Positions 13,472-36,817 of a DNA stretch of 37,547 bases are shown piece by piece. Origin of the DNA: a virus (lineage: Duplodnaviria > Caudoviricetes); the IMG/VR virus record IMGVR_UViG_3300044616_000283, positions 1 through 37,547 of that record; one strand, written 5' to 3'. A program made the position numbers and the translations under genes. How positions within the stretch are numbered: the first letter of the stretch is position 1; each line of letters opens with the position of its first letter. The notes below the pieces were generated by a model. That model was not told the origin of the DNA. It searched no databases and saw only the letters and a program-made list of their open reading frames with translations.

Positions 13472-16400
13472 AAATGAACTTAGTAAATTACTAGGCCAGA
13501 GAGGCTTAGATCCACTACAGCAAACTATATATGAACAGGGGCCAAAGAATTCCTTTGTTGCCCCTGAAGTACAGAATGTATATCAAGAAGGTAAAGTATA
13601 CTTCCCTTCTCCACAAGTTCAAGTAGAGAACAGTGATGTTGCATGGTACAAGCTCGGAGAGTTTGCCTTTGATGCAGCCCTGAAGACATTCACAAATGTT
13701 CAGGACTATCTAATTGACACTAAGCGCAATGGAATAGTTGATGCTAAGGATCAAGCGCAGACTGCGCTCTTTGATCTGGAGAGCAAGCTTAGCGTTGAAA
13801 GCTACAATGCTGGTGCCCAGAAAAGAGAAAAGCAAGCAGCCCTTATCGAAGATATGCAAGCTGAAGCTAAGCTCATTCGGAAAACCTATGCTGATAAAGT
13901 AAAGAATGTTTTAGGTGAGGATCATGATTTACTTTTGAATCCAAACCTAAACATGGGAACTCTCGGTCTTAAGTACCAGAACCTTGCTCTAACTAGCAGA
14001 GGAAGCGATAGAGATATCAGCCGTACAGCCAACCGAATGCTATATCAGCTTGAGCGTGTAAACAAAAACACCGAACAAGTCAATGATATGTCTAAGGCAT
14101 GGATGGCTGGTGCTGGTATTACAAAAGATAATATTTCTGCATTTCAGACAGGCCTTGCTCCCATTCCAACGAATGGTGGTGCTCCTGTCATTGGTGCTGA
14201 TGTGCAGCCAGACGGCTCCTTTAAGGTCAAGACAACCGTTATTGATAATAGAGAAGTTCCGTTGTTAATTCAACATGAAGGACAAGAAGGCTACTTCTTA
14301 AACTTACAAGCTATTGATGCAGCAAGTTGGGATGATCTACAGGGACTAGTAGTACTAGATCAGAAGAGCAGCTACTTAGCAAGTCCCGCTGCTAAGCAGT
14401 TTACCAAGACAACCGAAGATATTATTACTAATGTAGCCAATACTGAAGGCTCTTCCATGAGCACAGGCATGTCTGCGTATGCTGGCCAAGTCTTGGCACA
14501 GTTTTCAGACTCCGTAGCAGAACGGATGATCAATGGTCTGAGTGGATTAGGTACTGATGTTATTACCAAGGAAGGTGCGCGCATGAAGTTAATGATGCTT
14601 CGTGATGCGGCTATTCAGAGGATGCCTATTGAGCAAATCAATACCCTCACAGCAATGTCTAACCAGTCTCTTGGCCAATCTATTGATGGTCTGCGTAAGT
14701 TACAAGCATCTAGTGGTGGTTTAATATACGGCAATATCAGAGAAACTGGAAGAATGGATGAGCTTAATTTAGAAGCTGATGCAATCTTAAAAGTAATTGC
14801 TGGTATTAATCCAGAAGAACCACTACTCAAGCAGGACTTTAAGTTCAAACCTGATTCTACAGGTAGCGGCTTTACTACTGCTAATCCTAACAACGCTATT
14901 ATATTATCCCACTTCTTGCAAAAGAATCCCGGACTAATGCCAGTCGTTGCTCGGGTAATGGCTACAGCCAAAGACAATAGCGCACTATATACAAATGCAG
15001 ATGGCACTATAGATCCAGCAAAGCGTTCTGCTCTGCTAGGTAAGCTTCTACATGAACAAGTTAATTCATCTAATTATGTTAACCTAGGTGCTCAGGCTGA
15101 TGGCACTCCAACCTATATTTATAATCCCGGCTTGATGCATGTACAACAAAGCATGTCTGAGTTAGCCAGAGACACACAGAAGATAGCCGGATGGCCTACT
15201 GCACTTAAAGATTCTAGCAAGCATCAGCAGGTCATGGCACAGACTGCATGGTTCTCTACAGATATTGGTAGCACATCATCCAAGGCAAATATTATGGAGA
15301 TGTCTGCCGATCAGGCTTATGAAGCTGCTCGTTCTTTCATACCAACTGCAGATAAAGATTTATTTGTTAAGGGATGGGAAGCAATGCAAGCCGTTCAGGA
15401 TGATCCTGAGTACGGCTATCGCAGTGCAAGTCTACCTCCAATGGCTATGCTATACAGACTAGCCTTGGCTGCTACTCCAGCTGTTCAGGAAAAGTCTGGT
15501 GCTTTTGCTATGTTTAGCGTAGCATCACCAGAGCAGCGAGAGCAAGCCATGAAGCGTATCATGGATGACTTCCCCCTAGAAGTTGATCCTACTACTGGTT
15601 TTATGCCCGGTATTTCCATTGACATTGACACAGGAGCTTCTAGCCTTGACTTCATTGGGGCTGCCAATGGTGGCATTCCTATTGCCATTACGGGCATTAA
15701 GGGAAAGTCTGGTATTGATTATATGGACGCTGCTTACTCTATCTCAAGTAGAGTCAATGGCCGTGTAATTCCTAAAGGCAGCGATGGTATGCCATCTCTA
15801 ATGATTCATGCTAGCTCAGTCAATGATAAGAACCCTGAGTTCTCTTCTAATCTGAAGAGACTGGGCAGTGCTTATCGTGGAAACTTGGATATGTCCATTG
15901 CAACCAATGAAGACATGCCAAACGGAAACAGTCTTAATATTCGATCTGAAGAAATTCAGAATGTTATTAGTGCAACTACCACTCCATACCTACCAAAGAA
16001 AGCACAGGCAATCTTTGGTAATATTTTAATTGATCAACCACTAGTTAATGCAGAGACAGCTATTGCTTCTTTAAGCCGAAATGGTGTTGCTTTGCGTGAA
16101 GTAGTTGATAGTGATCCTCAGCTGAGCAAGGTAAAGAAGTTAATGTATGAAGTTGCAGATATCAATGGCAGAGGACCAGCTACGGTGGATAATCGTGTGC
16201 TCTTTAGCCCAGAGAATCTACAGCGTCTATATACGCAAGCAGTGGCCCGTGGAGCAAAGACACAAGGAGACTTTGTTGGCTTTGTGTTAGGAACAATGAA
16301 GACATTCCAAGAGAACAGGGCATCTCTAAAAGAGAGAGACTTTGTTGCTCAAAATCAAACTAACTCCGACACTACGCAAGACATTGTAATGCAGGGTGAA

Positions 16401-17819
16401 GAGCAAGGACGAATCCTTTGGAAGCCAAGCTCTCCTAGGTTCTTTGACTTTGTTACTGATCAAGCCCGACAAAGCAAGACAGTATACTCTGGTCCTGCTC
16501 CTGAAGATCCAGAGAACAAGACAGCATATTATGTTATGGATGCAGAGCAAGCTACTCAGCGTGGCTTGACTGTTGCCATTGACGCTACCATGCTTCCTGA
16601 TCTAGACGCCTCTCCCCGTGGTAAGTCACAGGCAAAGCGAAGACAGATTAATGCTACTCGGGATATTCTATTCCCATCAAAACCACAAGCAGATACGATT
16701 TCTCTGACAGAAATAGGTAGACAATCAACTCTTCCCTCTAACATGCAGAAGCAGTTTCAGGAAGACTTCAATGCCTTTGTGGCAAAGAATGATATCAGTG
16801 ACTTTGTAGACCTTCCCTTTATTGATCTATCTGGTTATTATACCGACAACGGTAAGATGCCTGACGATATCGCAAAGGTTCCTCAGAAGTATATCCTACC
16901 CGGACACAGTTCTACCAGACCATGGGTTGATCGGCGTGAGCGCAAGGATTCTTTTGGCCGTAAAAACGAACTGGTTCAGAATATAAAGGATACTACTAAG
17001 ACAATCCAGACATCTGGGTTCTCTGATGAACAGCTGCGTCAAGCAGAGGAACAACTAGGTTTTCCTGTTTATGTTCCCGGTAAGATAGCTAATGTTGTTA
17101 TAGAAGGAACATCTTCAATACTCGGCGGTCTCTTTGGATTTGCTAAGACTGTTGATGATGCTTTGTCCAAGGGCATGACTCAGGCTGGTGATAACCTCAA
17201 TGCAGACATTGAAAAGAATGCTATTGAAGTTCATAGACAGCAGACAATGGAACAGTACAACAAAGATCCTTATGCGTGGTACAACAAGGTCTTTGGTGGT
17301 GATGCATTAACCGCTCTCCGTAGAAACCCACCAAACAAGAATGAAGTTAAGGTTCCAGAAAAGTTCTTTAATTTTATTAATGCCGTGGTTGACTTTGGTG
17401 AGCCAATGGGTCCATCACCTTTCCATTACCTAGGCATTACTACAGATCGTCAAAAGAAGTTGATTAGCACAGGCTGGTCTACACTGGAAACTGAATATCA
17501 AATTCGTCTTGGTCTTAGCAATAAGTCAGACATTCTAGCCGATATTCATGAGACCATTGATAACTTAGAGCCAAATACTTTTAATCTTAGTTCTTCAGAT
17601 AGTGTAGCATTTGCCAGCAGTATATATGAAGCGGCTAAAGATACTGACAATCCTCTTACAAGAGAAGAGGCAAAGGTCCTTGCAGTTACACCTGCATGGA
17701 GACCTGACCTAAAGAAAGCATACTTCAATCTGAGTCTATACCCAGATGGCTATGCAGGTCACACTTACAAAACAACCCGTGAATCCATTGTGGATGCATT
17801 GAGAAAGTTGTTGAAGTAA
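13458..17819 (+). CDS. Large internal virion protein (gp15-like position), 1453 aa
   Basis: Long helical-looking ORF overlapping its neighbour, GGAG RBS; function inferred from synteny only. Confidence 0.55.
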   Translation: MAEVKNELSKLLGQRGLDPLQQTIYEQGPKNSFVAPEVQNVYQEGKVYFPSPQVQVENSDVAWYKLGEFAFDAALKTFTNVQDYLIDTKRNGIVDAKDQAQTALFDLESKLSVESYNAGAQKREKQAALIEDMQAEAKLIRKTYADKVKNVLGEDHDLLLNPNLNMGTLGLKYQNLALTSRGSDRDISRTANRMLYQLERVNKNTEQVNDMSKAWMAGAGITKDNISAFQTGLAPIPTNGGAPVIGADVQPDGSFKVKTTVIDNREVPLLIQHEGQEGYFLNLQAIDAASWDDLQGLVVLDQKSSYLASPAAKQFTKTTEDIITNVANTEGSSMSTGMSAYAGQVLAQFSDSVAERMINGLSGLGTDVITKEGARMKLMMLRDAAIQRMPIEQINTLTAMSNQSLGQSIDGLRKLQASSGGLIYGNIRETGRMDELNLEADAILKVIAGINPEEPLLKQDFKFKPDSTGSGFTTANPNNAIILSHFLQKNPGLMPVVARVMATAKDNSALYTNADGTIDPAKRSALLGKLLHEQVNSSNYVNLGAQADGTPTYIYNPGLMHVQQSMSELARDTQKIAGWPTALKDSSKHQQVMAQTAWFSTDIGSTSSKANIMEMSADQAYEAARSFIPTADKDLFVKGWEAMQAVQDDPEYGYRSASLPPMAMLYRLALAATPAVQEKSGAFAMFSVASPEQREQAMKRIMDDFPLEVDPTTGFMPGISIDIDTGASSLDFIGAANGGIPIAITGIKGKSGIDYMDAAYSISSRVNGRVIPKGSDGMPSLMIHASSVNDKNPEFSSNLKRLGSAYRGNLDMSIATNEDMPNGNSLNIRSEEIQNVISATTTPYLPKKAQAIFGNILIDQPLVNAETAIASLSRNGVALREVVDSDPQLSKVKKLMYEVADINGRGPATVDNRVLFSPENLQRLYTQAVARGAKTQGDFVGFVLGTMKTFQENRASLKERDFVAQNQTNSDTTQDIVMQGEEQGRILWKPSSPRFFDFVTDQARQSKTVYSGPAPEDPENKTAYYVMDAEQATQRGLTVAIDATMLPDLDASPRGKSQAKRRQINATRDILFPSKPQADTISLTEIGRQSTLPSNMQKQFQEDFNAFVAKNDISDFVDLPFIDLSGYYTDNGKMPDDIAKVPQKYILPGHSSTRPWVDRRERKDSFGRKNELVQNIKDTTKTIQTSGFSDEQLRQAEEQLGFPVYVPGKIANVVIEGTSSILGGLFGFAKTVDDALSKGMTQAGDNLNADIEKNAIEVHRQQTMEQYNKDPYAWYNKVFGGDALTALRRNPPNKNEVKVPEKFFNFINAVVDFGEPMGPSPFHYLGITTDRQKKLISTGWSTLETEYQIRLGLSNKSDILADIHETIDNLEPNTFNLSSSDSVAFASSIYEAAKDTDNPLTREEAKVLAVTPAWRPDLKKAYFNLSLYPDGYAGHTYKTTRESIVDALRKLLK

Positions 17820-17856
17820 TCCTATTTATGGCGCATTGCTCCCAGAAAGGGTAATA

Positions 17857-20800
17857 ATGTTTGATTTTGCACAAGGCTTTCCAAGCCAACCTTCGCTGCC
17901 TACTTCCGGGCCGTTGAACTACCAAGCCGAGAAGTTAATCCAAGTTCGTGGATTTGGCGAGATGGGCTTGAACCCAGTAAACATGGTTGGCGGTATGCTC
18001 AACCAAGTAGTCGGTGATGATTATGTTCGCGTTCTTGATGCCTCTGGTCTACGCGATGGAATTAACTGGACCCATGGTGAACTTCGCAAGGTAGCGGATA
18101 ACCGTGAGTATGGAAATCTTGAATACTTCATTAATACCCTTAACGGTGGTAAGCAAAACGATGCAGCAGTTGGCTTGGGATGGGCTTTAGAACCCTCCCA
18201 AGCCATGCTGTATCGCCAGATCATGGGTAATAATCCACTAGAGCCAGTAATGTTTGCTCCTAGTGAAGTTACCCCAGAGATCATGGCCGCTGAAGAACAG
18301 GAACTAAAAGGACTATTATCGACTGATGGTGTCTCAGAAGAGAACCAAAAGCGAGTACAAGAAATTTCAAACAAGAAAGCTTATGTCGAATCAAAGACAC
18401 AAGCTGACAAGAACCTAGGCTTTAACTGGTGGGATTGGTATAAGCAAACCAATGTGTTTAATGCTGCTTCCACTTTGGGAGTCAATGTTCTTGGTGATAA
18501 GGATATTATTGATACACTTACTGAGTATGATCCAAACTTTAAGTCAAACGATTGGTTTGATAATTTTGCTGCTGATCCAATTGTTAAGCAGGGTTTACTA
18601 GAAAACGGGATCACTGCAGATACTGTAGCTGAGTCTCCCAATGCTGACCATGCTTTTATGCGTATTAGCCATATGATGTATGAGTCCAATACCCAAAAGA
18701 GACTGGGTACCTATAAGCCAACTAATTATGACTTTGTAAAGAACATGGGTTCAGGCTTAGTTAGTTTTATGGTGGATACCCCAACAGGTGCTACTATTAT
18801 AACAGGAGCGGCTGTTACTACTGCAGCGTCAATTTTTAGCCCTGCTAACTTTGCTGCTGTAGGAGCCACTGCTTTAGGTGAAGCTGCTGTACTGGGAGAA
18901 AGCGCTGTTGCCACAAGCAGTACCATGACCTTCCTCAATGGAGCAAAGACACTAGGCGAAACTCTCTATAAGCTCCCACTTGGTATGGCTCCTCAGTGGA
19001 TGGAGGGTACTACCCTTTTATCAATGACTGCAGCTAACATAGCTTCCGGTGCTATTCAAGGAACAATCGGTTCTTACAATCAACAAGCCAATGAGATTTC
19101 CTTTGGTGCGGCTACTATGTATGTTAATCCTTCTGTTCGTAGAGAGATGGATTATAGTGAGGTAGCAATAGAAGCGCTGTATTCCGGTGTGATGATGGGT
19201 GGTCTATTTGGTTTGGGTGGTGGTCTTTTACGCTCTGTAAAAGGCATGACTGATAATGGACTCAAGGGACTAATCATTGATCCAGTAACAGGCAAGCGTA
19301 ATAGACTAGACCGTAGCTTTACTTTCCAAGATACGCCACTAGGTAATACACTCCAGATGCTCCATATCAAGGACTACGAAAGAAGTCTCATTGACCTGAA
19401 GCCAGTTGATGTTGTGCGTAATGAGGCCATCCTTGAGAAGACTGATCCCACTCCAGATCGCCTTGCTGCCGAGACAGAAGGCTACGCTGATAGAGCCGAG
19501 GCTAGAGAAGCGCTTAAGAATCCCGAAGCAGCAGAGGCTACCCCAGAGGATGTGGGCACTCGTAAGTATGAATCCGAAACAACAGAACAATATATTAATC
19601 GTGTGGCCCCAAGCCGCACTATCCGTAATCTACCTGAGCTGGTAACTGAGGTTGCTAGAAGAACACAGGTAGAAGGTGGGCGTATGATTTCTTCTACAGA
19701 AGAGTATCATCAGATGACCCCACAGGATCAGGCAAGAACGCTGATCCGCACACAGGCTGTTCTTGAGGCTGCTAAGAAGGCTGAAGAGAAGGCTGTGGGT
19801 CTACCAAAGGAACGCGAGCGTGTCTTTGAGCAGTTAGAGGCTTCTCGCAAGGAAGCTTTACGCCGCATTGGCAAGACTCTTACTCCAATTGAATTCAAGA
19901 GACTGAAGGCAGAACTCAAGGGTGATAAACCCAAGGTAAAGGGCAGTCTGCCTGAGCTGCTTACTGTAGCTAATGACAAAGCAAAGCCAATCGCAGAACG
20001 AAAGGCTAATGCTGAAGAAGCCGCAGGACAAATCCTAGAAACAGCCCGTGCAGTTATTAAGAATCCTGATAAGGCTAAGGTAATCAAGTCAAAAGTTCCA
20101 CAAGAAATTCTTGACAAGGTTGATGCTGTTGTTGTAGAAGAAGCTCTTACTGGTAGAGTCTCAGCAGAAACAGCAGAAGAAGTTAAGAGAAGTCTTTTAT
20201 CAGCCGAAGAACCTTTTACCTCTAGCCTTACCAAGCGTATTGAGCGAGCAGTAAAAGTCAATAGACTCTCTCCTGATCGCGTCGCTAGAATCAACGCAAT
20301 CAAAGAAGACCACACTCGCTTTGTGTCTCTAGTTAAGGGAAACAAGATGCGAGCACTGGCGCTGTACAACCACATCCACGAAGGCGTAGTTACTGGTGTA
20401 CTTACTGCAGAAGATCGTGTTCTTATCCTAGCTTCCGTATCACACCTTAACTTTGATCTTAAGGGTTTTGCGATGGAGTATGCATATAAGAACATGGACG
20501 ATGTTAATGTTGCAGGTGAATACAATGCCAAAACAAGAGTACTCACACTAAACACCAAGTCTACACCATCCAATAGAGCACATACAGTTCTCCATGAAAT
20601 TGGACATGCTCTCTTCTCAAACGACATGCGTGGTGAAGTATACCTTGAGAATCTCAAGCTGTACAACAGCATGCGCGAAGGTACTCCTCTTTCCAGTAAG
20701 GGTATTCAATTAATTGATCCTCTTACAGAAAACCTAGGCAAGTACCATCTTCAGAATGTTGAAGAGTCATTTGTTCAATTGTTCTCCAATGTAGTACTGG

Positions 20801-23800
20801 CAGAGACAGCACAGGTAATGACACCTATGGAATCCACAATGGTCCGTAAGACTTTTGCTTTCATTGAGAAGGCAATTCTTAATGCAACTATTGCTCTGGA
20901 TGAATCCAAGTATTACGAAAGAGCCAACGCTGTAATTAAGGCACTGACTGAAGTTGACAACAAGGTCATTCGCCAGAGCGTGTCTGTGTCTAGCCTTCTC
21001 CGCGCTATTGCAACGGCAGAAGAAGCAAGACCAAAGAATGTTGCTCAGTTTAACTTTGAAATTGCAAAGAGTCTGGGTGCTCGTCATCCAGAAGTTGATA
21101 AGGCTGTAATTAGAGAAACTTTTACTGATGCTGAATATAAAATGTTGTTCAAGCAGGTAAACGATCCTACCTCACTAGCAGCTTTTGCTATTACCCGAGA
21201 AAGCGGTAAGCCAATCGTTGATGAAGCAGGACGCTTCACTGTACATGCTCCTAAGTTCTTTGAGGCTTACTCAGAGTACAAGAAGGCGCAGTACAACTCA
21301 GCTGCAACCCGCGTTGCATATATGTTACGATCCATGTCTTACAAGCTTCTAACTGGTATGACAAAAGAAGAACGAGAGAACTTCTTTACTTATGAAATGT
21401 TTGATATTAATGCTAAGCAAGAAAAGGGATCACCTTATGAGAAGTCTTTAAATGACAATCTATCGGCTACCTATGAGGACAACCACCTTGCCAGCATGAA
21501 TCTTAATGGTGGTAACTATGCTACCGACTACCTGATGACTACAGCAGAATCCTTTGTGGAACTGCTGCAGGAAGATGGTATGAGTGATATTGCTCCATCG
21601 GCTATGACACTATCAGCCGCAGCGCGTGAAGCTCTCATCAGCCGCATTCAGGAAGATCCATATCTATCAAAGCCAATCATGGAACAACTCCGTGAGCACT
21701 TTGATAAGGCTGGTCTTACAAAGTATTATCAGCGCGCCTTTGATACAATGCAGAAGAATCTAATCCTTCGCATGTATGAAGAAGGTGTGTTCAGTATGAA
21801 TGACCTGAAGCTTGTCTGGGATACGCCAGAGTTCAAGCAGTACTTTGGGAATAGTAAGGTAGTAGATGAGAATGGTAATCCATTGATTATGTATCATGGT
21901 ACTTCAGACACAAATTCTATTTCTATCTTTAATTTTGATCAACATGTTGATAGAGACTGGGGAAGAAAAGCTGGATTAGTAAATTACTTAGGTCGTGTTT
22001 TTTATTTCTCAAAAAACGCTAAAGATGCTAGTGACTTTGCTTTATACGAAAGAAGTGGAGAAAACGCTTCAGTATATCCAGTTTATTTAAGAATTGAAAA
22101 ACCTTTTGATACTTCGGTTGAGTTTTCACAGAAAGATGCTAAAAAACTTTTAGTAGGTTTTTATGAGCAATTGTTAAAAGAAACCCCTGATAACAAAGAC
22201 TTAGCAGCTCAACTGTACTTTTTAAAACTTACACTAGTGGACTCTACATTAGGTAAAGATATTTATAAGCAACTGGCTGACATTGGAGGCCATGCAGATA
22301 GAGCAAATGCTTACTTGCAAACATTAGGTTATGACGGTATTATTGACATTTCATCAGATATGGGTGTTCAGTACGCTGTGTTTAAGCCTGAGCAAATCAA
22401 GTCTATCTGGAATGACGGTACTTTTAGTCGCACTAATCCAGACATCCGTAGAAGTATTAATCCAGAAGTATCTAAGAAGCGTGAAATGATTGGTGTTCTT
22501 CAGCAATTTATTGGTGATAAGAATGCCTTTAATGCCATGCCACTTGAAGATCTACTCCGTAATGTAATGGGCTTAGAAGAAACTCTAGTTGTCAAGTATA
22601 TGAACCTAGGCAAGTCTAATCCCATCAAGGCTCTTCAGGCTCTGCAGATTGCAGTTAGTAAAAACCTAATTGAGCATGATGGTGCTAACTGGATTCTAAA
22701 GGTAGAACAAGTTGCACCTAATGAACCTGTCCAACCTAAGATGCCTTCCCCTAAGAAAATAGCTATGGTTGAAACAAAAGCTAAGCTTGTTACTGCAAAG
22801 ACACTAGATGCTGAGCTTATGAACTATGCTGCTAAGGTTGATAGTGTTTCAAAAGAAATAACACAAGAAGCTTTACAAGAAGCTTTAGTTGCTTTCTTGG
22901 ATACAACTTCACCCCAGAGAGCGGCACTATTAGCTAAGCTTGAAGAAGGAATGACAAGCAAGGAGCTTGGTTATTACCTAAGACGCGCTGTAAAGAATAA
23001 TGAAATTTCAGAACAACGCAATCAAAATAAAAACCAAAATATTGAAACCGATGAAGGAAAACCCAAGGACGGAAAAGTTCGTCAAGCTATTGATACCACA
23101 AAGCAGCGCCAGTTAGATGCCAATATGTATTCTTTAATGCAGTTCCTGCATGATAAGTTTTTACAGAAGACTAATACTGGGCTGTTCAACGAAACTCAAA
23201 TGAAGACACTACTTACTTTGAGTAAGAATAGAACAGTTAAGCTAGCTAATGGTAAGGAAGAAGTTGCTCCACCAACGCTAGACGAAGCAGCTAAGCTTCT
23301 TGGTCTTAGCGGTAAGTCTGGTGTTTCTGAACGTATTAAAGCTATGAAGCGTACTATGCAAAAGAAACTTGGTCTTGCGGATAAAGACGTTGCTAAAATA
23401 TTTAGTAGTGAGAAAGAACTCACTAATAAAGAAAAGACTGTACTATTTGATAAACTTGAAGAAGCAATGGAGCGCTTAGTTGAAGCTTCTAAAGAGAAAC
23501 CAAAAGCTGATCCTGAGCCAGTATTGCCTCCTGCAGAAAAGCTAGTAGAAACAGGAAATCAAATCTTAGACACAATAAACCAAACAGCCAAGATGGAACA
23601 GAAGGCTGATCCAGTTGCTGTACCTAAGACTGAAGAATCCACAGGACACGCTACAGTAGATACTGGAGCTGAAGCACCAAAGGAAACTCCTAAGTTGGTA
23701 CACACAGAACCAGTGGCCGATGCTGTTGCCAGTGGTGAAACCAACATGACTAAGACAGCGGTACAGCTGGATATCAAGAAGTCATTCTCAATGAAGGGTA

Positions 23801-26800
23801 TATTCACCCAAGCATCGGATGCTCTTGATCGTCTCTTCAATGCACTGGCAATTGAATATCCTGATGAGGTCGTTAGCCTTAAGACGGTTAAGGATCAGCA
23901 TGCCTTTGTAGTTAAGCTACTGAAGGAAAAGGGATATGACTCTGTTATTGATGAGCGTGGTAATGTTGTTCCCCTCAAGGAACCCAAGGTAATTGGTAAG
24001 ACCAAGAAGCGAATCTCCAAGGAAGTTGCGGAGAAGCAGCAAGATCCTACCGTTGTTACTAAGGACGAAACAACATTCTCTACCGAAGACGGAGTTCCTG
24101 TGGCTACTACAGAGACTGTGGTGGAAACACCCAAGGCTCCTGTGGGACCAGTTGAAACTCCTGCTGGAGATCGTACTGTTGTTCCTACTCCTACTAAGAC
24201 TGTGAGTGATGTTGCAAAGCTACCTGAAGCAGAGACTTTAGAGCGTAAGGTAAATGAAGATCCAAAGCTACTCCGTAATAACGGCATGGATCGTAGTTTC
24301 CTAAAGCTCTTTACTAAGGCTTATTGGAAGTCCAAGATTGAAGCCAGTGCCAATGATCGTGCCATTGCTAAGATGGCCGAGGAATCTAATGGCGGCGCTA
24401 ATGCAGCCAATACTATGATGGCAAGGGCTTTCTTCAGTGGTACCAATTCAGTTAGTCACTCAATCACTGAGAAGTTTAAGACTGCATGGGGTGACTTTGT
24501 TCAGGTTAATCAGTTTATTGCTGAAGCAAATAAAAGAATGTTTGGCGAAGATATCATGGAACGCTTCTGGAAGAAGGTCGATGAGATTAACGCCGTAGAT
24601 AGAATTAGACCAAAGGCTGCTGAAGGTCCAGCAGGAATCAAACCTTTGACATATAGAGAAGTTCTTGACAAGGCTGCTGAGGCCATGAACGAAGAAGGCA
24701 AACCAGCCTTTGTTCGTCCATTGCTTCCAGATGAGATTAAGTTTGTCAAGGCCGATGAAGCTGGAAATGTTCGTCTATCCGGTAAGAACAAGCAGACCCG
24801 TGCCATTATTGATGCGGCTCTGACTGAAGCTGAAAAGGTAGAACCACCTAAAGTTGAAAAGGTATTGGATGCCGAAGGAAAGGTAGTACCAGAAGATACA
24901 ACCCCAGTAAAGCCTGAGGAGCCTACTCCACCTACAACCGAAGATCAAATGATTGACGCTGCGGTAGATGGTAGCGAATCAGCAACCTCCAGACCATGGA
25001 GACTAAATAACTTTGTTGGGCATCTGTTTGGTGGCGACAACACTGCTAATGCTACATGGTGGCGTAAGCAGATGGCTAAGCTTGCCAATGCAACTCAGAG
25101 TTCATCACAGCTTGGAAACACAATCCGAAGCTTTAATGATTCAATTGCATTTATTTCCCGATGGGCTGACGATACCCGAGCACAGACAGGACATGTCGTG
25201 GGTGTAGGCAAGACTCCTTTCAAGACCATGTTGCAAATCAAGATGGACGAAGGAAGAGTCATTACCCGAATCCTGCGAGCATACTCTGACTTTGATACCA
25301 CCCTAAGAGGTGCTAACAAGCCAGCTGTGCAATCCTATATCTACGACTGCTTGCGTAAGGGTGAGCAACCAAACAAGGCTGAGATGATCAAGCTAGGTGT
25401 TGGTGTGCATAACGCTGAAGCAGCAGTAAAGAAGGCGGGTTACTTACTGGAAATCTCCAGAGCAATCAATGACAAGATCCTCTACATGGAAAATACCACA
25501 GGTAGACTGGTCACCACTGATAAGCACGGCATGCCTCTTGATCCCAAGAAGTATGCCCCTGTTCAGTTTGATCACGAAGCTTTGATGCGTATTGCACCCG
25601 GAGAACACTCAAAGATCATTGATGCTATGGTAATTGCCCGTACTGCAACCAAGTTAAACGATCCACGCCTTGACAGAAACACAATGATTGTCATGGGTTG
25701 GATTGATGTTAAGTATAATAAAGAAACTGGTGGATACGAGTTCTTCTCTAAGGAACGCCAACTAAAGCATTCCGAAGGCGCCAATATGTTCGGTAACGAT
25801 ACCCTAGCCAAGCTGCAAGTCAGCAAGATTGCCAAAGAAGGCACAGGCGGTGACAAGGGTATCCTTAAGAACCTACTGCGTAAGGGAGATCCAAATAAAT
25901 ATTTCATCCTTGAATCAGATACAGAGTATACTGTATATCGTCTGCCTGAGGTTCTTGAAGACCTAGGCAATGCCGACAAGGCAAAGTATACAGAAGCTGT
26001 AAAGGGTAACACTGCTCATTACACCATTGATTGGCGTGAGCGTCTTGGTAACAAGAACCTAATTCAGCGAGAGATGGAAGAGATGTTTGCCTACAAGACC
26101 AAGAAGGCTCCTTATACGGATGACAGCTATGGTCTTGTTCGATCCATGTTTAAGATTGATGAGAATGGTCGAAGTGGTATTACAGTACCCGGCCTTACTC
26201 CCGAAGAGATGTTATCTGACCCAATGCTGGCCAAGCTATTGAGAACCAATCTGGCTGAAGCATACTTCCACTGGGTAAAGGGAAGATACTTTGATCTGAG
26301 CTTCCAACAGGAACTAGACAGAGTAATGGGAACCAAGGGCATCACTTGGGATAAGGTTACTAGCAGAGTTGCTAAAAGAGCACAAGATGATATTTCTAAG
26401 ATTGCAGTAGATAGTGGGTGGACTAGTAAGCAACTAGATAGTGCACATCGTGATATCAATAATGGTATCAAGAGACTGCAGGAAGAGTTCCGAGCTGGTG
26501 CTGAAACTCTACCCTTCTTTGCAAACAAGGGACCACTAGGATCAAGAGCTGCTAATGCTGCTATTCGATTCAAGTTCTCTGTTGGCTATGGTGTATCACA
26601 ATTTACAGAAATTCTTCAGGAACTTGTTAAGCACTCCCCAGAGTTCTATACAATGCCAAAGAATATCTTTGAAGCACTGCGCTATGTGGTTGGTGATTAT
26701 AGAATCTCCAAGAACAAGATGCTTATGTCTGAACTGGGTGATATGACCTTTGTGCTTGAAGCTTTCAAGACAGACCTATCAAACCGATTTATGGGTGAGA

Positions 26801-28317
26801 CTGGTTATGGTACACTTACTACAGATTCCAGAATGGGCACTCGTTTTGCAAAGGTTGCTCAGAATATCCGTAATGCCAATGGACTAGGGGAAACTCTGGT
26901 GACCATTGGTGAGGGTGCTGCCGAAGGTATGCAAGCCCTAGGCTCACTGTCGGCTCAGACACAAGCTGTGCGTGTACTGGGTAAGGTGAGAATGCAACGG
27001 TCTATCTGGCATTACTTTGAAAACGGTAGTGTGGAAAAGCTAATCACTAGACTAGAAGACCCAACGGTTGCTGCTGAGTTAGCTGAGCTTAACAAGGCTG
27101 CTGCCGTTGATCAAGCCCAACAGGTCAAACTATGGAAGCGCTTTGCTGGCGTTGCCAGAGAGAGTGGCTTTGGTATGGACCAGCATGATGCCATGATGTT
27201 CCTCAAGTACGGCTTTGGTGATGCTGAGACTGTCAAGGCCTTTAAGTGGGCCATGACCAAAGTCAAGCATGACAAGGGCCGTGTCAATATGAACCTCCTT
27301 TGGGATCTGGCTGATCAGGTTGCCCGAGAAGGCTCCAAGGAAGTAGACCCAGAGATTCTGGGTAATGCCCTATCAAATTATCAATTTATGTTAGAGGACA
27401 AAATTACCAAGGAAGTAGCAAGCGAAGTCCGTGGGTTAAACCGACAGACAGACCTTGAATCCAGAAGCGCTCTTGGGCGTCTATGGTATGCCTTGAGTTC
27501 CTTTACTCGTTCATATCAGGATAATGTGATTATGGGTTACGGTAGCAAGAGTACCATCAAGTACCTTGCTGGTGGTATCTTCTTGTACATGGCAGTGGAT
27601 GCCCTAACCAGTTACCTTAAGGAATATCTAGCAGGGCGTGACCACAAGGATATCCTACAAGAACTGGAGGATCGTCCAAGTGAGTTCATGATTCGTGGTG
27701 CTGCAAGAACCCCATTCATGGGAACATGGAATGGATTCTTGGAAGCTGGTCTAGCTGGAGCCTCGGCTCTCAACGGTGGAACCTATAAGTACTACGGGAT
27801 TCCCGGACTACCCGCAGGTGCCTCTGCTGGTGAAGCTGCTCTATCCGATATCTACAATAACACCAAGACATTGGTGGGTAGTGATTCTGACATGGGTAAG
27901 AGACTTAAGGCAGCTAGTGGTCTATTGGGTGTTTCAGATATAGTTAATCGTAGTCAGGCTGCTATTCCTATCCGTGTCCTACAAGACATGGGGGCCATAG
28001 AACAACAGTCTGCCGTAGGAACTTATTTGGATCTCATCCACAGAAAGCCATATCCCTACATGAAGCAGAATGCTAGTGCTGGTACTTATCAACCAATGGA
28101 CCCCAATGATTATCAGCCTACTCCAAGGAACTTTGCCAAGGAGGCTTCGCAATACGAGGCTGCTAAGCAGATGACCAAGCAGTTCCCGCTGCCACCAGAG
28201 AGAGTGGTAGTACCTAAGAGAACCGCAACATCTAGGGGTACGACCAGTCAGATGTTTAATTCGACTAGTCCCAATACAGGAGTGTCAGGTGAACTAGGGG
28301 ATCTCCTAGATCAATGA
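17857..28317 (+). CDS. Giant polyvalent internal virion protein (gp16-like position) with metallopeptidase, ADP-ribosyltransferase and ECF-sigma-like domains
   Basis: ATG at 17857 after GAAAGGG (track start is TTG 17836). HEIGH at 20593-20607; ART-PolyVal-like block 21811-22455; sigma region 2/4-like block 22801-23376; hydrophobic segments near both ends. Confidence 0.8.
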   Translation: MFDFAQGFPSQPSLPTSGPLNYQAEKLIQVRGFGEMGLNPVNMVGGMLNQVVGDDYVRVLDASGLRDGINWTHGELRKVADNREYGNLEYFINTLNGGKQNDAAVGLGWALEPSQAMLYRQIMGNNPLEPVMFAPSEVTPEIMAAEEQELKGLLSTDGVSEENQKRVQEISNKKAYVESKTQADKNLGFNWWDWYKQTNVFNAASTLGVNVLGDKDIIDTLTEYDPNFKSNDWFDNFAADPIVKQGLLENGITADTVAESPNADHAFMRISHMMYESNTQKRLGTYKPTNYDFVKNMGSGLVSFMVDTPTGATIITGAAVTTAASIFSPANFAAVGATALGEAAVLGESAVATSSTMTFLNGAKTLGETLYKLPLGMAPQWMEGTTLLSMTAANIASGAIQGTIGSYNQQANEISFGAATMYVNPSVRREMDYSEVAIEALYSGVMMGGLFGLGGGLLRSVKGMTDNGLKGLIIDPVTGKRNRLDRSFTFQDTPLGNTLQMLHIKDYERSLIDLKPVDVVRNEAILEKTDPTPDRLAAETEGYADRAEAREALKNPEAAEATPEDVGTRKYESETTEQYINRVAPSRTIRNLPELVTEVARRTQVEGGRMISSTEEYHQMTPQDQARTLIRTQAVLEAAKKAEEKAVGLPKERERVFEQLEASRKEALRRIGKTLTPIEFKRLKAELKGDKPKVKGSLPELLTVANDKAKPIAERKANAEEAAGQILETARAVIKNPDKAKVIKSKVPQEILDKVDAVVVEEALTGRVSAETAEEVKRSLLSAEEPFTSSLTKRIERAVKVNRLSPDRVARINAIKEDHTRFVSLVKGNKMRALALYNHIHEGVVTGVLTAEDRVLILASVSHLNFDLKGFAMEYAYKNMDDVNVAGEYNAKTRVLTLNTKSTPSNRAHTVLHEIGHALFSNDMRGEVYLENLKLYNSMREGTPLSSKGIQLIDPLTENLGKYHLQNVEESFVQLFSNVVLAETAQVMTPMESTMVRKTFAFIEKAILNATIALDESKYYERANAVIKALTEVDNKVIRQSVSVSSLLRAIATAEEARPKNVAQFNFEIAKSLGARHPEVDKAVIRETFTDAEYKMLFKQVNDPTSLAAFAITRESGKPIVDEAGRFTVHAPKFFEAYSEYKKAQYNSAATRVAYMLRSMSYKLLTGMTKEERENFFTYEMFDINAKQEKGSPYEKSLNDNLSATYEDNHLASMNLNGGNYATDYLMTTAESFVELLQEDGMSDIAPSAMTLSAAAREALISRIQEDPYLSKPIMEQLREHFDKAGLTKYYQRAFDTMQKNLILRMYEEGVFSMNDLKLVWDTPEFKQYFGNSKVVDENGNPLIMYHGTSDTNSISIFNFDQHVDRDWGRKAGLVNYLGRVFYFSKNAKDASDFALYERSGENASVYPVYLRIEKPFDTSVEFSQKDAKKLLVGFYEQLLKETPDNKDLAAQLYFLKLTLVDSTLGKDIYKQLADIGGHADRANAYLQTLGYDGIIDISSDMGVQYAVFKPEQIKSIWNDGTFSRTNPDIRRSINPEVSKKREMIGVLQQFIGDKNAFNAMPLEDLLRNVMGLEETLVVKYMNLGKSNPIKALQALQIAVSKNLIEHDGANWILKVEQVAPNEPVQPKMPSPKKIAMVETKAKLVTAKTLDAELMNYAAKVDSVSKEITQEALQEALVAFLDTTSPQRAALLAKLEEGMTSKELGYYLRRAVKNNEISEQRNQNKNQNIETDEGKPKDGKVRQAIDTTKQRQLDANMYSLMQFLHDKFLQKTNTGLFNETQMKTLLTLSKNRTVKLANGKEEVAPPTLDEAAKLLGLSGKSGVSERIKAMKRTMQKKLGLADKDVAKIFSSEKELTNKEKTVLFDKLEEAMERLVEASKEKPKADPEPVLPPAEKLVETGNQILDTINQTAKMEQKADPVAVPKTEESTGHATVDTGAEAPKETPKLVHTEPVADAVASGETNMTKTAVQLDIKKSFSMKGIFTQASDALDRLFNALAIEYPDEVVSLKTVKDQHAFVVKLLKEKGYDSVIDERGNVVPLKEPKVIGKTKKRISKEVAEKQQDPTVVTKDETTFSTEDGVPVATTETVVETPKAPVGPVETPAGDRTVVPTPTKTVSDVAKLPEAETLERKVNEDPKLLRNNGMDRSFLKLFTKAYWKSKIEASANDRAIAKMAEESNGGANAANTMMARAFFSGTNSVSHSITEKFKTAWGDFVQVNQFIAEANKRMFGEDIMERFWKKVDEINAVDRIRPKAAEGPAGIKPLTYREVLDKAAEAMNEEGKPAFVRPLLPDEIKFVKADEAGNVRLSGKNKQTRAIIDAALTEAEKVEPPKVEKVLDAEGKVVPEDTTPVKPEEPTPPTTEDQMIDAAVDGSESATSRPWRLNNFVGHLFGGDNTANATWWRKQMAKLANATQSSSQLGNTIRSFNDSIAFISRWADDTRAQTGHVVGVGKTPFKTMLQIKMDEGRVITRILRAYSDFDTTLRGANKPAVQSYIYDCLRKGEQPNKAEMIKLGVGVHNAEAAVKKAGYLLEISRAINDKILYMENTTGRLVTTDKHGMPLDPKKYAPVQFDHEALMRIAPGEHSKIIDAMVIARTATKLNDPRLDRNTMIVMGWIDVKYNKETGGYEFFSKERQLKHSEGANMFGNDTLAKLQVSKIAKEGTGGDKGILKNLLRKGDPNKYFILESDTEYTVYRLPEVLEDLGNADKAKYTEAVKGNTAHYTIDWRERLGNKNLIQREMEEMFAYKTKKAPYTDDSYGLVRSMFKIDENGRSGITVPGLTPEEMLSDPMLAKLLRTNLAEAYFHWVKGRYFDLSFQQELDRVMGTKGITWDKVTSRVAKRAQDDISKIAVDSGWTSKQLDSAHRDINNGIKRLQEEFRAGAETLPFFANKGPLGSRAANAAIRFKFSVGYGVSQFTEILQELVKHSPEFYTMPKNIFEALRYVVGDYRISKNKMLMSELGDMTFVLEAFKTDLSNRFMGETGYGTLTTDSRMGTRFAKVAQNIRNANGLGETLVTIGEGAAEGMQALGSLSAQTQAVRVLGKVRMQRSIWHYFENGSVEKLITRLEDPTVAAELAELNKAAAVDQAQQVKLWKRFAGVARESGFGMDQHDAMMFLKYGFGDAETVKAFKWAMTKVKHDKGRVNMNLLWDLADQVAREGSKEVDPEILGNALSNYQFMLEDKITKEVASEVRGLNRQTDLESRSALGRLWYALSSFTRSYQDNVIMGYGSKSTIKYLAGGIFLYMAVDALTSYLKEYLAGRDHKDILQELEDRPSEFMIRGAARTPFMGTWNGFLEAGLAGASALNGGTYKYYGIPGLPAGASAGEAALSDIYNNTKTLVGSDSDMGKRLKAASGLLGVSDIVNRSQAAIPIRVLQDMGAIEQQSAVGTYLDLIHRKPYPYMKQNASAGTYQPMDPNDYQPTPRNFAKEASQYEAAKQMTKQFPLPPERVVVPKRTATSRGTTSQMFNSTSPNTGVSGELGDLLDQ

Positions 28318-28360
28318 CATGCCGAATAGATGGGGCTATAGATATAATACTATAGATATA

Positions 28361-28533
28361 CCTAGGTTAACCTAGGGGAGTAGCTAAGCTACTCTCCTAG
28401 GCACCTAGGAAATTCCTATAGATTTTAGTTTAGGTTTTATTACTATGGATATAGCTTAGTCCCCTAGGTATCTCTCTAGTTAAAATCACAATAAATTATC
28501 CAACCTAGGTCCCATGGAAACATGGACCTAGGT
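28361..28533. repeat. CCTAGG array with palindromes and hairpins at probable genome end
   Basis: CCTAGG at 28361, 28371, 28396, 28404, 28463, 28504 and 28527; perfect 16-bp palindrome CCTAGGTTAACCTAGG; hairpins 28371-28401 and 28503-28533. Confidence 0.8.
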
Positions 28534-28698
28534 ATTATGCGTATCACTGGTCAACCTCCCCCCGGTCTTGCCGGGTAGGTCCCTTGTCGATTTCGGTAGC
28601 TGCCCCTCCCCGCTCACTGCCGGGGGAGCTCCCTTAGCTACGTTTGTTCCTGCTGGCCCTACGATGCCTCAGGAACGCTTCCTGAGAATCCAATGGGT

Positions 28699-28724
28699 CC
28701 AAGGGGCACCAAGGAGAGCCAAGG
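28699..28724 (+). repeat. Three CCAAGG copies at 10-bp period
   Basis: CCAAGG at 28699, 28709 and 28719. Confidence 0.7.
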
Positions 28725-28824
28725 CCCCATAAGCGATTCCTAAGAAAATCGACTTAGGGGTAAAAAATTAATAAATGACTATCCCCCCTAGGTCCCCCCT
28801 TCCCGCCCCCCGGTACCCCCGTGG

Positions 28825-28878
28825 GTCCGATAACCAAAGGTCCGATAACCTGAGTCCGATAACCTAGGTCCGATAACC
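28825..28878 (+). repeat. Four iteron-like direct repeats GTCCGATAACC
   Basis: Exact 11-mers at 28825, 28840, 28854 and 28868 (periods 15, 14, 14). Confidence 0.9.
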
Positions 28879-29018
28879 CAGATCTGCGGGGGGGTCTGAA
28901 CATTCCCCGCTGAACTCGTCTACTGGTGGCGGAGCGACCCGCCCTCTTTGACAATCCAACGGAGTGTTTCCCCGCGCGGCCATCATGCCATAGTGGAAAC
29001 TGGTTCTAACGAATCATC

Positions 29019-29471
29019 GAATGCCCGATCCCAAGTACGCTAGGTTACCATAGGGTAGCCAACGTAGCAAGCCGGACCCCTGAAAGGGGGTCGCGGGAAG
29101 TACGCCTAGCCTAACGGGAACGCAACCGGAACGATGAAACGAACGAACTGTAATACCTGTCGCCCCTTGGGTGGGGCAAGGTAGTGCGCGTATCCCGGAT
29201 GGCTAACGGGAACGCATGGACGGGAACGGTAGCACGTTCCACCCATGAAACAATAACTAACTTCCGATACCCTGCATTCTTTCCGCAGGGTATCGGCTAG
29301 AATTCTCCGTAGTCGTTAGGGCCAGCCTACCGCCTAGGACGCTATGTGTTATCGGTTCCGCCCATATTGGCCAGTATCCGATAAGTACCGCGTTACCTTG
29401 GCATCTATAAATGGTCCCTGAACTATGCGGAGGGTTCTAGCCGATCCGTCCAACGTGGACAATCGGGATTC
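29019..29471 (+). ncRNA. Candidate large structured non-coding RNA or early leader
   Basis: No credible ORF; many helices containing G-U pairs, a GAAA tetraloop (29075-29092) and a ~19-bp long-range helix (29293-29311 with 29426-29444). Confidence 0.5.
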
Positions 29472-29494
29472 AAGTTTACTGGAGATTGAACACA

Positions 29495-29941
29495 ATGGAC
29501 ATGCCTACTTTCGTTCGCGTTGCGATCGCTTGCAATCTTTCCGGCGCGTTCGCGGATTCCCTCAAGTCCCCCAAGTCATTCACGGCTACGGGGAAGGTGG
29601 ACTGCCGGAAGTTTCCGGCTTTGCTTGAGAAGGTTGCGTACATGTATAACAAGGAATGCACGCACAAGTTCTATATGCTGAACATTCTGTGCGGCAAGGA
29701 TGGCATTCCGATGAATGACATTCTAAACGATGAGAATGAGATCGTGCAGAAAGGTTTCCGGTGGCGCGGCAACGCTACGGAAGGTATCGAAGCCCATCCG
29801 GCGGCTGAAGTGTTTCAGGATCTTTGCACCTCCTATCTGCGTGCTAACTTTCCGAACCTGAATTGGGAGGTGGAGTCATCTGCTCCGCAGGTTCGCCGCA
29901 AGGATATCCCGTCCGATATCCTCGCCACGCTCGATATCTAA
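29495..29941 (+). CDS. First early gene, hypothetical protein
   Basis: GGAG RBS at 29481; ATG 29495 (track start TTG 29486); GC-richer codon usage than the late genes. Confidence 0.8.
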   Translation: MDMPTFVRVAIACNLSGAFADSLKSPKSFTATGKVDCRKFPALLEKVAYMYNKECTHKFYMLNILCGKDGIPMNDILNDENEIVQKGFRWRGNATEGIEAHPAAEVFQDLCTSYLRANFPNLNWEVESSAPQVRRKDIPSDILATLDI

Positions 29942-29947
29942 TCGGGC

Positions 29948-30020
29948 CGTCTATCCCCCGGCTTTGCCGCAGGGGATGGACGCTAGGGTATCCCCTGCGG
30001 GGGATGCTCTAGCGTCTATC
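29948..30020 (+). promoter_or_regulatory. Overlapping long hairpins (RNase III-like processing site or switch)
   Basis: GATGGACGCTAGGGTATCCCC-tgcg-GGGGATGCTCTAGCGTCTATC (21 bp with G-U) competes with hairpin 29948-29982. Confidence 0.55.
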
Positions 30021-30048
30021 CGCTCGCCATCAATCCGAAAGAATCCCC

Positions 30049-30369
30049 ATGAAGGCTTTCCAGAAGAATGTGCTTGAGATGTATGTCCGCCGTGCAATGC
30101 AGACGGGAACTATGGCAGATGCTGCCATTGCTGCGGACTATCTGTGCAAGGTATCCGGTAGTTCCTATGCGAACTGCATTGCTGCTCTTTGCAAGGCATA
30201 CGGTATCCGCCATGCGGATCGTATCTGCAAGGATCGTCCGGGCATGTATGTTTCCAAGAATCCTGCACGGGAATTGGCTGCAGGATGTATCGTCAAGTTT
30301 GATAAGGAAACTATCTCCGTGAAGCGTATCCCGGAGGTTGTCCCCGCTGCTATTCTCATGTCCATCTAA
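30049..30369 (+). CDS. Hypothetical early protein
   Basis: 106-aa ORF with codon style like its neighbours. Confidence 0.7.
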   Translation: MKAFQKNVLEMYVRRAMQTGTMADAAIAADYLCKVSGSSYANCIAALCKAYGIRHADRICKDRPGMYVSKNPARELAAGCIVKFDKETISVKRIPEVVPAAILMSI

Positions 30370-30382
30370 CCGGAGGTAAACA

Positions 30383-30637
30383 ATGACCACTTTCAAGTAT
30401 AACGGCAAGTCTTTGGTTTGCGTTGTTCAGTATAAGGATGTCAATGATTCGATGACATCTATGACTTGGTTTGAAACTTTCGATGGTAAGATTGTGATTG
30501 ATACGGAGAATGCCCACTATCCCGAAATGTATGGGTTGGCAATGGTTGATTACATCAACGATGCCAGCGCCCGTGAATGTCTCCATAAGTTTGCGGATAC
30601 TGCTAGGTTTGGCGCAGACTATGTGCTTGTTGGTTGA
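30383..30637 (+). CDS. Hypothetical early protein
   Basis: GGAGGT RBS; 84 aa. Confidence 0.75.
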   Translation: MTTFKYNGKSLVCVVQYKDVNDSMTSMTWFETFDGKIVIDTENAHYPEMYGLAMVDYINDASARECLHKFADTARFGADYVLVG

Positions 30638-30644
30638 ACACTTT

Positions 30645-30678
30645 GGTATGCCATAGGGAAACCTATGGTATGCCTTTC
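30645..30678 (+). terminator. GAAA-tetraloop hairpin, copy 1 (terminator or processing site)
   Basis: GGTATGCCATAGG-GAAA-CCTATGGTATGCC-TTTC. Confidence 0.55.
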
Positions 30679-30696
30679 GTCTGGCTTCTTTATCTA

Positions 30697-30721
30697 TCCG
30701 GCTATGCCGGGAAAGGTTTGA
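30697..30721 (+). repeat. 25-bp direct repeat, copy 1 (hairpin + RBS)
   Basis: TCCGGCTATGCCGGGAAAGGTTTGA, identical at 30950-30974. Confidence 0.9.
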
Positions 30722-30725
30722 GACA

Positions 30726-30974: not shown

Positions 30975-30975
30975 C

Positions 30976-31068
30976 ATGTCTACCTTTCTTCTGATTGGTG
31001 TGGCTTTGCTTGGAATCTTTGGTGTGTATATTCTTCTTTGGTGTGCTGAAGAGAATAAGAATCTTTAA
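30976..31068 (+). CDS. 30-aa single-TM peptide (not in ORF track)
   Basis: MSTFLLIGVALLGIFGVYILLWCAEENKNL, preceded by the repeat-borne RBS. Confidence 0.55.
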   Translation: MSTFLLIGVALLGIFGVYILLWCAEENKNL

Positions 31069-31079
31069 TAGGAGCTGAA

Positions 31080-36484: not shown

Positions 36485-36817
36485 ATGCTAATAAACACAT
36501 TCACAAAAACGGTTGGATCTAATCCAAATTTATATTCGATTTTCCAGATGGCCCTTGACAGAGGAACAACGGCGTGGTATAATGGTGCAACGGAACAGCG
36601 ATGGGATGATAAACTCCATATCATGCTGTCGATGATTCAGGTTGATACTACACAAGGTATTGAGAATCGAATGATCAAACAGTACATTACTTATGAGGAC
36701 CTTAAGGAACTGAGCATGCTGTTATGGCAAGCACAGACTGCATATGAATCCAGACAGAAAGAACTCCAAGAAGAAACTCAAAGAGCAAGAGAAGCCGCGA
36801 ACGAAACCAAGGCTTGA
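36485..36817 (+). CDS. Hypothetical protein
   Basis: 110-aa ORF directly after the previous gene. Confidence 0.6.
   Translation: MLINTFTKTVGSNPNLYSIFQMALDRGTTAWYNGATEQRWDDKLHIMLSMIQVDTTQGIENRMIKQYITYEDLKELSMLLWQAQTAYESRQKELQEETQRAREAANETKA

Follow-up and report, generated by a model that had tools for sequence, protein, structure and literature searches.

Can a phage bring its own sigma factor into the cell, matched to the first promoter on the incoming DNA? The question is raised by a Caudoviricetes virus, IMG/VR record IMGVR_UViG_3300044616_000283, of which 37,547 nucleotides (positions 1 to 37,547, called the window below) were analysed. One open reading frame (ORF) of the window encodes a giant protein of 3493 amino acids (aa), within which nucleotides 22801-23376 encode aa 1656-1847, a stretch that a preliminary description had read as a complete sigma factor of the extracytoplasmic function (ECF) type. 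In the usual view, a T7-like phage relies on the host's housekeeping holoenzyme both to make its first transcripts and to draw its DNA into the cell. The present analysis leans, if only somewhat, towards a different start, in which an injected sigma drives the host core RNA polymerase (RNAP) on a leading-end promoter until the T7-type RNAP of the phage has been made.

The sigma-like module and its predicted docking

The reading frame is confirmed, together with the strings quoted from it in the preliminary description. The module sequence is real: run X8, not among the runs flagged as possible sources of the record, has contigs that match 22603-23482 with 0 differing letters. The module spans aa ~1652-1847 and comprises a sigma2 and a sigma4 domain, both highly diverged. 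For HH profile-profile comparison, 27 bacterial ECFs were set against the 21 modules left after removal of 5 near-duplicates. The C-domain matches the ECF sigma4 profile with a score of 35.7 (HH Prob 93.6%), and the best segment outside the module scores 19 (114 segments in all). A global alignment of the complete module with ECFs extends across 173 columns (HH Prob 84%). The C-domain profile also matches LuxR, GerE and YlxM chains in the PDB (E ~1e-3), and by itself this domain is inseparable from a LuxR-type helix-turn-helix (HTH).

For the N-domain, the ESM Atlas is informative: a 93-aa query that leaves out the HTH has Sigma-70 region 2 clusters as its first matches (0.95 and 0.94), and 20 of 30 matches belong to the PF04542 set, with 120-135 shared features, which is the distant range. 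The whole module matches small proteins at 0.95-0.96, with partial Sigma70_r4_2 and r2 labels. A structural model built on five sequences (pLDDT 70.5; a single-sequence fold of pLDDT 56 was set aside) has RpoE sigma2 (5uxx) as its best sigma row in VIA, with Z 6.5, a root-mean-square deviation (rmsd) of 3.0 and 76 aligned residues, followed by ShbA (Z 6.0, rmsd 6.1, 90 aligned) and SigH (Z 5.4 over both domains). Sigmas make up 6 of the 11 top VIA rows, counting 9m98_F as a sigma, and the rows span both domains. Against the Foldseek PDB and viral sets, the same model has no match at E<=0.001.

Curated families capture little of this likeness. Among 22 modules searched with PF04542, PF04545, PF08281 and TIGR02937, Sigma70_ECF matches two (best E 0.0028) and Sigma70_r4 one (E 0.0018), below all cut-offs, as are the whole-protein scores. 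Four more distant modules have no sigma match in Pfam, NCBIfam or the PDB, and a five-sequence module profile has a single chance match in the PDB. A scan with RpoE returned near-identical copies that were unusable as a profile. Across the 22 aligned modules, the QE pair of region 2.2 is kept in only 3-4 (Q in 4, E in 4), an acidic residue three positions before it in 18, and the Y and N of regions 2.3-2.4 in 17 and 16, respectively. The sigma4 recognition helix is intact in nearly all family modules.

Taken together, these comparisons make it very probable that both domains descend from sigma-70. The sigma-like nature claimed earlier thus gains support from HH, the Atlas and the docking described below. 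Of the phrase 'complete ECF sigma', the architecture stands and family membership does not; the Pfam check proposed at the time gives no Sigma70 match for the window's copy, and the structural check is split between the empty Foldseek result and the RpoE row. The most distant giant proteins, L043, L048, L049 and L051 (25-31%), show more ECF-like text in regions 2.2-2.4 than the close ones do; their modules are possibly nearer the ancestral sigma, and they have no curated match.

Co-folding with the beta' clamp helices had been proposed in the preliminary description; with a stand-in beta' fragment (from G020), the N-domain gives 0.71, against 0.00 for the best of 3 controls. The docking mark is reached by 116 of 157 solved pairs and by 2 of 215 mismatched pairs; in the docking runs, contact agreement is at least 64% and partner pLDDT at least 77. 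Residues 253-284 of the fragment, which we take to be about 267-298 in E. coli numbering, face module residues Q30, E31, Q34, E35, L37, V38 and L41, and Q1681 and E1682 sit on the clamp helices. These helices are the established docking site of sigma2 (10.1101/534826). Since the predicted site is the textbook sigma2.2 site, the pass shows likeness to solved holoenzymes, not binding. The module is predicted to bind host core at the beta' clamp helices via region 2.2.

Relatives were collected through the conserved C-terminal part of the giant protein, which yielded 24 homologous proteins of 1962-4160 aa, with 19 loci from viruses and 23 from metagenomes; with the module itself as query, viral and metagenome contigs returned no loci. 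An iterated profile, grown from the same proteins, finds the module in 26 of 26 giant proteins. Among the 33 loci spanning its position (duplicates counted), 30 have it, 2 of them by the N-part only, and the remaining 3, representing two distinct proteins, hold sigma-like text at the same place by eye. A sigma2 profile made from bacterial ECFs only has a single match in the 3498-aa L048 protein, and it falls at this place (i-E 0.024). All homologues found are embedded, and a search of limited sensitivity among 7604 candidates of 91-403 aa returned no free-standing relative.

The module and the neighbouring ADP-ribosyltransferase (ART) cassette are the variable parts of the giant protein, and the module is the most variable. 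Its identity to P0002 is 44-55%, compared with 66-97% elsewhere in the protein; to G001, a close relative known from a partial record (82% complete), it is 59-83%, compared with 93-100% outside the ART-to-module stretch. Lake variants have ART and linker exchanged in place; in two of them, X15 and X22, the linker is replaced by other letters, with joints at 23037-23227/23230. The winged-helix-like segment directly before sigma2, which has no informative Pfam or NCBIfam match, covaries with the module.

The presumed leading-end element and its partial covariation with the module

Judged by T7 gene order, the non-coding stretch after the giant gene would be a genome end and the leading end. About 0.55 kb beyond the gene lies a candidate promoter, inside the 28.7-29.5 kb fragment that the preliminary description had named for in vitro transcription. 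In the family, the element has the layout T-[pentamer]-WTY-N12-[pentamer]-N5-T-G and stands right behind an array of GTCCGATAAC copies; in the relatives compared its geometry is fixed and its pentamers are clade-specific. The predicted transcription start in the window is near 28927-28928. The element was placed by eye in 19 leaders, in 12 of them at equal distance from the last array motif. When the inverted array motif is the sole anchor, exact register is found in 11 of the 16 distinct leaders, an offset of at most 2 nucleotides (nt) in 3 and a larger one in 2; the window itself has no inverted array copy. G001 keeps both pentamers while 5 of 12 spacer letters change. In variant X22 one letter of the spacer and one of the discriminator differ, and the rows shown contain no altered pentamer.

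Exact copies number one per record in 11 of 12 records and two in the window; the second, a TGAAC-N15-CGTCT at 9172, is probably a chance match, having one mismatch in G001, and 4 of 100 shuffles give two matches. The TGAAC...CGTC of the element resembles what we take to be the ECF consensus. A rigid spacer is an ECF trait (10.1101/534826). T7-like phages normally carry a host-driven promoter at the leading end (PMC12455610). A sigma70 site of at least 9/12 is absent from 16 of 17 distinct leaders, as scored with the E. coli consensus rather than that of the host and without a T7-type leader as positive control.

Clusters of 1-4 GTCCGATAAC copies occupy the equivalent place in 11 of 11 relatives (12 of 12 records with the window), with some scattered single copies elsewhere. 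Orientation within a cluster is mixed, the last copy usually being inverted, and the cluster is constant while nearby proteins vary. As the target of the module the array is rejected, being constant while the module varies. The element is likewise rejected as a promoter for the phage RNAP, a role that a different, multi-copy conserved motif fits, and several private promoter copies in the style of T7 A1-A3 were not found in the records scanned.

If the module reads the element, the two should change together. At the -10 position, helices of the types YIHxTAxN, (R/K)LAxT, AI(K/L) and YY(L/I)RR go with (C/T)CCTT, CGTT, (C/G)CCCC and CGTCT, respectively; at -35, RTAGNYR goes with TGCCG and STAxRYR with GACCG. 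Kin share pentamer labels, so the discordant cases are the informative ones; they are judged against the C-terminal backbone, encoded between module and element (15 rows; L024 and duplicates omitted). In the backbone tree L032 is sister to L008 and L029 (100/99) with L007 outside, whereas the module tree groups L007 with L008 and L029 (85/82). The -35 follows the module, reading TGCCG in L007, L008 and L029 and GACCG in L013 and L032. L010 combines a backbone of the L008 clade (72% to L008) with a 19% module and an unrelated element. In a partial Mantel test on 14 sequences, the -10 correlates with the sigma2.3-2.4 helix given the backbone (r 0.43, p about 0.0005). These sequence comparisons are suggestive of pentamers that partly follow the module rather than the backbone, in two or three independent events.

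Features of the window that bear on the module and on early transcription
Feature	Position	Strand	Remarks
Giant multidomain (polyvalent-type) protein, 3493 aa	17836..28317	+	Last gene of the putative internal-virion block
Zincin-type HExxH metallopeptidase motif region	20491..20616	+	PF06114, E 0.009; candidate for module release
ART-PolyVal ADP-ribosyltransferase cassette	21865..22416	+	PF18760, E 1e-20; optional, swapped among close relatives
Winged-helix-like segment directly before sigma2	22483..22731	+	Label by eye only
Sigma2-like domain, aa ~1652-1734	22789..23037	+	Atlas Sigma70_r2 clusters, VIA RpoE row, predicted beta' docking
Region-2.2 QE (Q1681, E1682)	22876-22881	+	Within the sigma2-like domain
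Linker and helix between sigma2 and sigma4	23038..23178	+	Low confidence; pLDDT <50 at module 81-105
Sigma4/LuxR-type helix-turn-helix, aa ~1782-1847	23179..23376	+	HH and model; clade-specific beta-hairpin insertion
Candidate phage-RNAP promoter CCGAATAGWTGGGGCTA	28322..28341	+	Second copy 33861-33880; repeat D10
Array of four GTCCGATAAC copies	28825..28877	+	Starts 28825, 28840, 28854, 28868; no other copy in the window
Candidate cognate promoter, TGAAC-N15-CGTCT	28897..28928	+	-35-like 28897-28901; -10-like 28917-28921
boxA-like CTCTTTGACAA	28944..28954	+	Presumed label; CTCTTTAACAA in G001
Conserved hairpin before the first early gene (29495-29941)	29262..29299	+	CCCTGCNTTCTTTC after the array
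Perfect sigma70-type site TTGACA-17-TATAAT, extended -10	36555..36583	+	Inside ORF 36485-36817, upstream of the last ORF

A boxA-like word follows the element in some of the leaders. The hairpin before the first early gene is presumably RNase III-site-like, by analogy with T7, and CCCTGCNTTCTTTC follows the array in 26 of 43 loci. Long conserved hairpins, RNase III-site-like or terminator-like, stand before or between early genes at 29262-29445, 29971-30024, 30645-30674 and 31751-31788. Between them and the element, a non-coding, hairpin-rich leader cassette (~28990-29260) is partly common to L022 and L023 despite 36-38% backbone likeness, and other relatives have unrelated cassettes of 90-570 nt. 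Leader cassettes are possibly structured RNAs; Rfam finds only tRNAs in 28200-37547. Three tRNA-like genes lie at 35421-35499, 35910-35985 and 36063-36136, two of them Ile(TAT) and Leu(TAA) by ARAGORN and the third found by Rfam only. An exact 25-nt repeat, TCCGGCTATGCCGGGAAAGGTTTGA, precedes two early start codons (30697-30721 and 30950-30974).

The proposed start of infection and its rivals

The family also has a polymerase of its own. PF00940, with both positive controls detected in the scan, is present in 12 of 18 related viral records and in 6 of 6 of those at least 90% complete; it is absent from the window and from G001, which are partial records (58% and 82%). Among 9 mapped relatives, 8 have the RNAP gene starting 8.0-10.0 kb past the giant gene, the ninth wrapping the contig end. 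In 5 of 5 records with both matches it follows, by 0.5-1.3 kb, the homologue of the window's last, cut-off ORF, which we assume to be DUF932-like. The window ends 9.2 kb past the giant gene, short of the expected place; a 2479-nt contig of run X1 continues 2.1 kb beyond that end. Allowing up to 2 mismatches, each of 12 records has 1-5 matches to the CCGAATAGWTGGGGCTA motif on the plus strand, and the minus strands have 3 in all; of the window's two copies, one stands directly after the stop of the giant gene, like the right-end promoter of T7, and one within the early region. The T7-type RNAP of the relatives, together with the candidate CCGAATAGWTGGGGCTA promoters in the window, implies that the module would act beside, not instead of, the T7-type enzyme.

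The giant protein would likely travel inside the particle and leave it together with the leading DNA end; the module might stay tethered or be freed by the HExxH peptidase. It would then load on host core RNAP, as predicted, and open its single private promoter, with the array, 20-50 nt upstream, perhaps binding a constant factor. The transcript would run via the early genes toward the RNAP gene, so that early transcription would need no host sigma until the phage T7-type RNAP is made. In T7, host RNAP pulls the genome in (PMC13434306), and transcription here would probably help in the same way. Fast change of module and promoter would reflect an arms race with host defences or adjustment to new hosts. 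The fuller proposal, a fourth start mode beside the host holoenzyme, a modified host enzyme and an injected polymerase, in which an injected private sigma and its own leading-end promoter form a co-changing, orthogonal lock-and-key pair that also powers genome entry, is offered tentatively, as somewhat less secure than the injected sigma alone.

Several observations weigh against this proposal. The window's module copy has no Pfam, NCBIfam, PHROG or PDB-sequence match in single-sequence scans. Compared on its own with the sigma2 profile, the N-domain falls short of significance (15.1; null mean 10.9, maximum 19.2), in an alignment that is in register at regions 2.3-2.4. The top VIA row is a designed protein (Z 6.6), and all VIA scores lie under the Z 8 caution level. 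Most homologues lack the region-2.2 QE, so that core binding may not extend to the whole family. The covariation is weak and comes from 14 related sequences, with boundaries set by eye. The 15 nt that precede the element vary with the module too (r 0.40, p 0.007), and the -35 correlates better with the backbone than with the module (0.50 vs 0.20). At 36555, 7.7 kb past the element, stands a perfect sigma70 site, which suggests that in the window's phage the RNAP gene may be served by host holoenzyme as well; in the early regions of 11 relatives scanned, no sigma70 site of at least 11/12 occurs.

The chief rival is an injected module that mimics a sigma but selects no promoter. It would occupy or tether host core, either competing with the sigmas of the host or keeping the enzyme at the ejection channel to serve as a DNA-pulling motor, while host sigma reads the element. 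The surface that passed docking is precisely the core-binding one, T7 gp16 is described as recruiting host RNAP (PMC13434306), and the neighbouring ART points to an attack on host RNAP. L022 and L023 share an identical leader with modules 47% identical and differing recognition helices, and L019 has the element of L020 at 45% module identity. The hexamer that precedes the conserved G is TAnnnT in 5 of 19 leaders, so host sigma could read the element there. A mimic, however, has no need for a clade-specific element of fixed geometry that follows module swaps (L007/L032, L010), and the sigma4 recognition helix is kept in nearly all members. The mimic is judged unlikely, although still the strongest of the alternatives.

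Less likely again is that the giant protein is not injected, being made late with a module that acts then (on concatemers or in shutting down host transcription) or has no function. Neither single sequences nor a 20-sequence profile match any solved or PHROG ejection protein, which is why the virion location is only inferred; only one hydrophobic 19-mer exceeds 1.4, and the putative internal-virion block (9492-28317) is placed after the terminase, whereas in T7 it comes before the tail fibre. Ejection proteins diverge beyond detection (PMC13434306). Against this alternative, the giant gene follows a gp14-like gene in a block of three large genes: ORF 11662-12420, with weak T7 gp14-like matches (PF24072, E 0.075; phrog_805, E 0.0098), then 12410-13471 and 13458-17819. 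Its size is like that of the N4 virion RNA polymerase (vRNAP; PMC13434306), and its metallopeptidase (MPTase) and ART make-up is that of injected polyvalent proteins (PMC5512222). The HExxH residues L919, H920, E921 and H924 are invariant in 20 of 20 giant proteins. From gene context, the giant protein is probably a virion component, and retention of the module together with its fast change speaks against a relic.

The ART-PolyVal cassette occurs in 10 of 26 giant proteins scanned and is 32-67% identical to that of G001, while most of the giant protein is 95-100% identical. It is exchanged for a different ART in G001 and in run X15. Between terminase and gp14-like gene, a 165-aa ORF (11174-11671) has a sulfotransferase-type P-loop look by eye, with no family match. 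Metagenome runs listed with window sequence come from lakes, freshwater or unlabelled samples in all cases, and no RNA run is listed among the public runs. A scan of genome contigs for prophage copies found none, leaving no host clue. GenBank phages show similarity limited to the ART part of the giant protein.

A purely DNA-binding role is about as improbable as a giant protein that is not injected, and perhaps slightly more so. Here the HTH and the winged-helix-like segment would grip the leading end, for example at the GTCCGATAAC array, during ejection or for protection, with the sigma2 part a relic. The HTH alone is significant by profile, with LuxR/GerE-type chains as best PDB matches, and all 12 records scanned have an array at what is taken for the leading end. 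That array is constant, however, while both candidate DNA-binding parts vary to below 20% identity, and the N-domain maps to Sigma70_r2 with predicted docking at the sigma site. Finally, the version in the preliminary description, in which the injected sigma replaces a T7-type RNAP entirely, draws on the lack of PF00940 in two partial records and is scarcely tenable, given an RNAP in all six near-complete relatives, just past the window's end point, and candidate phage-RNAP promoters in the window itself.

Known systems and biological meaning

Among the nearest known systems is the ECF (group 4) sigma-70, such as E. coli RpoE, M. tuberculosis SigH and Bartonella RpoE (5uxx). Like these, the module has sigma2, linker and sigma4 in ~200 aa, a predicted docking on the beta' coiled coil and a candidate promoter with a rigid spacer. 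Unlike them, it is embedded in a 3500-aa protein, scores below curated cut-offs, has region 2.2 eroded in most members and carries a hairpin insertion in sigma4, and no anti-sigma gene is seen. T4 gp55, SPO1 gp28 and phiEco32 gp36 are free-standing phage sigma factors. Jumbo-phage sigmas are described likewise (PMC7824862). The module resembles them as a phage-coded sigma proposed to recruit host core RNAP; they are made after infection, for middle or late genes, whereas the module belongs to a putative virion protein and would be paired with the first promoter.

Whole polymerases are injected by N4 and by crassviruses, the latter also with a vRNAP. The vRNAP of N4 and DEV (PMC13434306) shares with the giant protein a size of ~3500 aa, a putative place as third ejection protein, an MPTase domain and a proposed role in early transcription; the giant protein, in contrast, would bring the specificity subunit while the host lends the catalytic core. 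With the T7 ejectosome (gp14-16) and Autographiviridae, in which host RNAP is expected to read the leading end (PMC12455610, PMC13434306), the window's family shares the T7-type terminase, tube, nozzle, fibre and RNAP, the first four detected in the window itself by Pfam, NCBIfam and PHROG-type scans. It differs in lacking detectable gp15/gp16 homology, in a block that follows the terminase, in records of 60-67 kb and in leaders without E. coli-type sigma70 sites.

Polyvalent proteins (Iyer et al. 2017, PMC5512222) likewise combine MPTase and ART-PolyVal in one very large multidomain phage protein with swappable cassettes, a combination found here, and self-cleavage that frees their domains has been proposed (PMC5512222). 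The word 'sigma' is absent from the main text of that article, and no description of an injected sigma factor was found in the open-access literature. New in this family are a contact with core that is predicted, a matching promoter that is a candidate and comes with natural swaps, and the presence of a T7-type RNAP beside the module.

If the proposal is true, it offers practical openings. A module of 200 aa, a promoter of 60 bp and core RNAP would suffice to test it in the absence of host and phage, and the natural swaps would serve as controls. Matched module and promoter pairs are possible orthogonal transcription parts and would provide data on how sigma2 and sigma4 read DNA, and the family would be a natural library of at least 6 sigma/promoter specificities. 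For the phages themselves, entry would be freed from the supply of host sigma, which is relevant for starved lake bacteria, and the first promoter would be hidden from host regulators and anti-sigma control. The family would then bridge T7-type and N4-type strategies.

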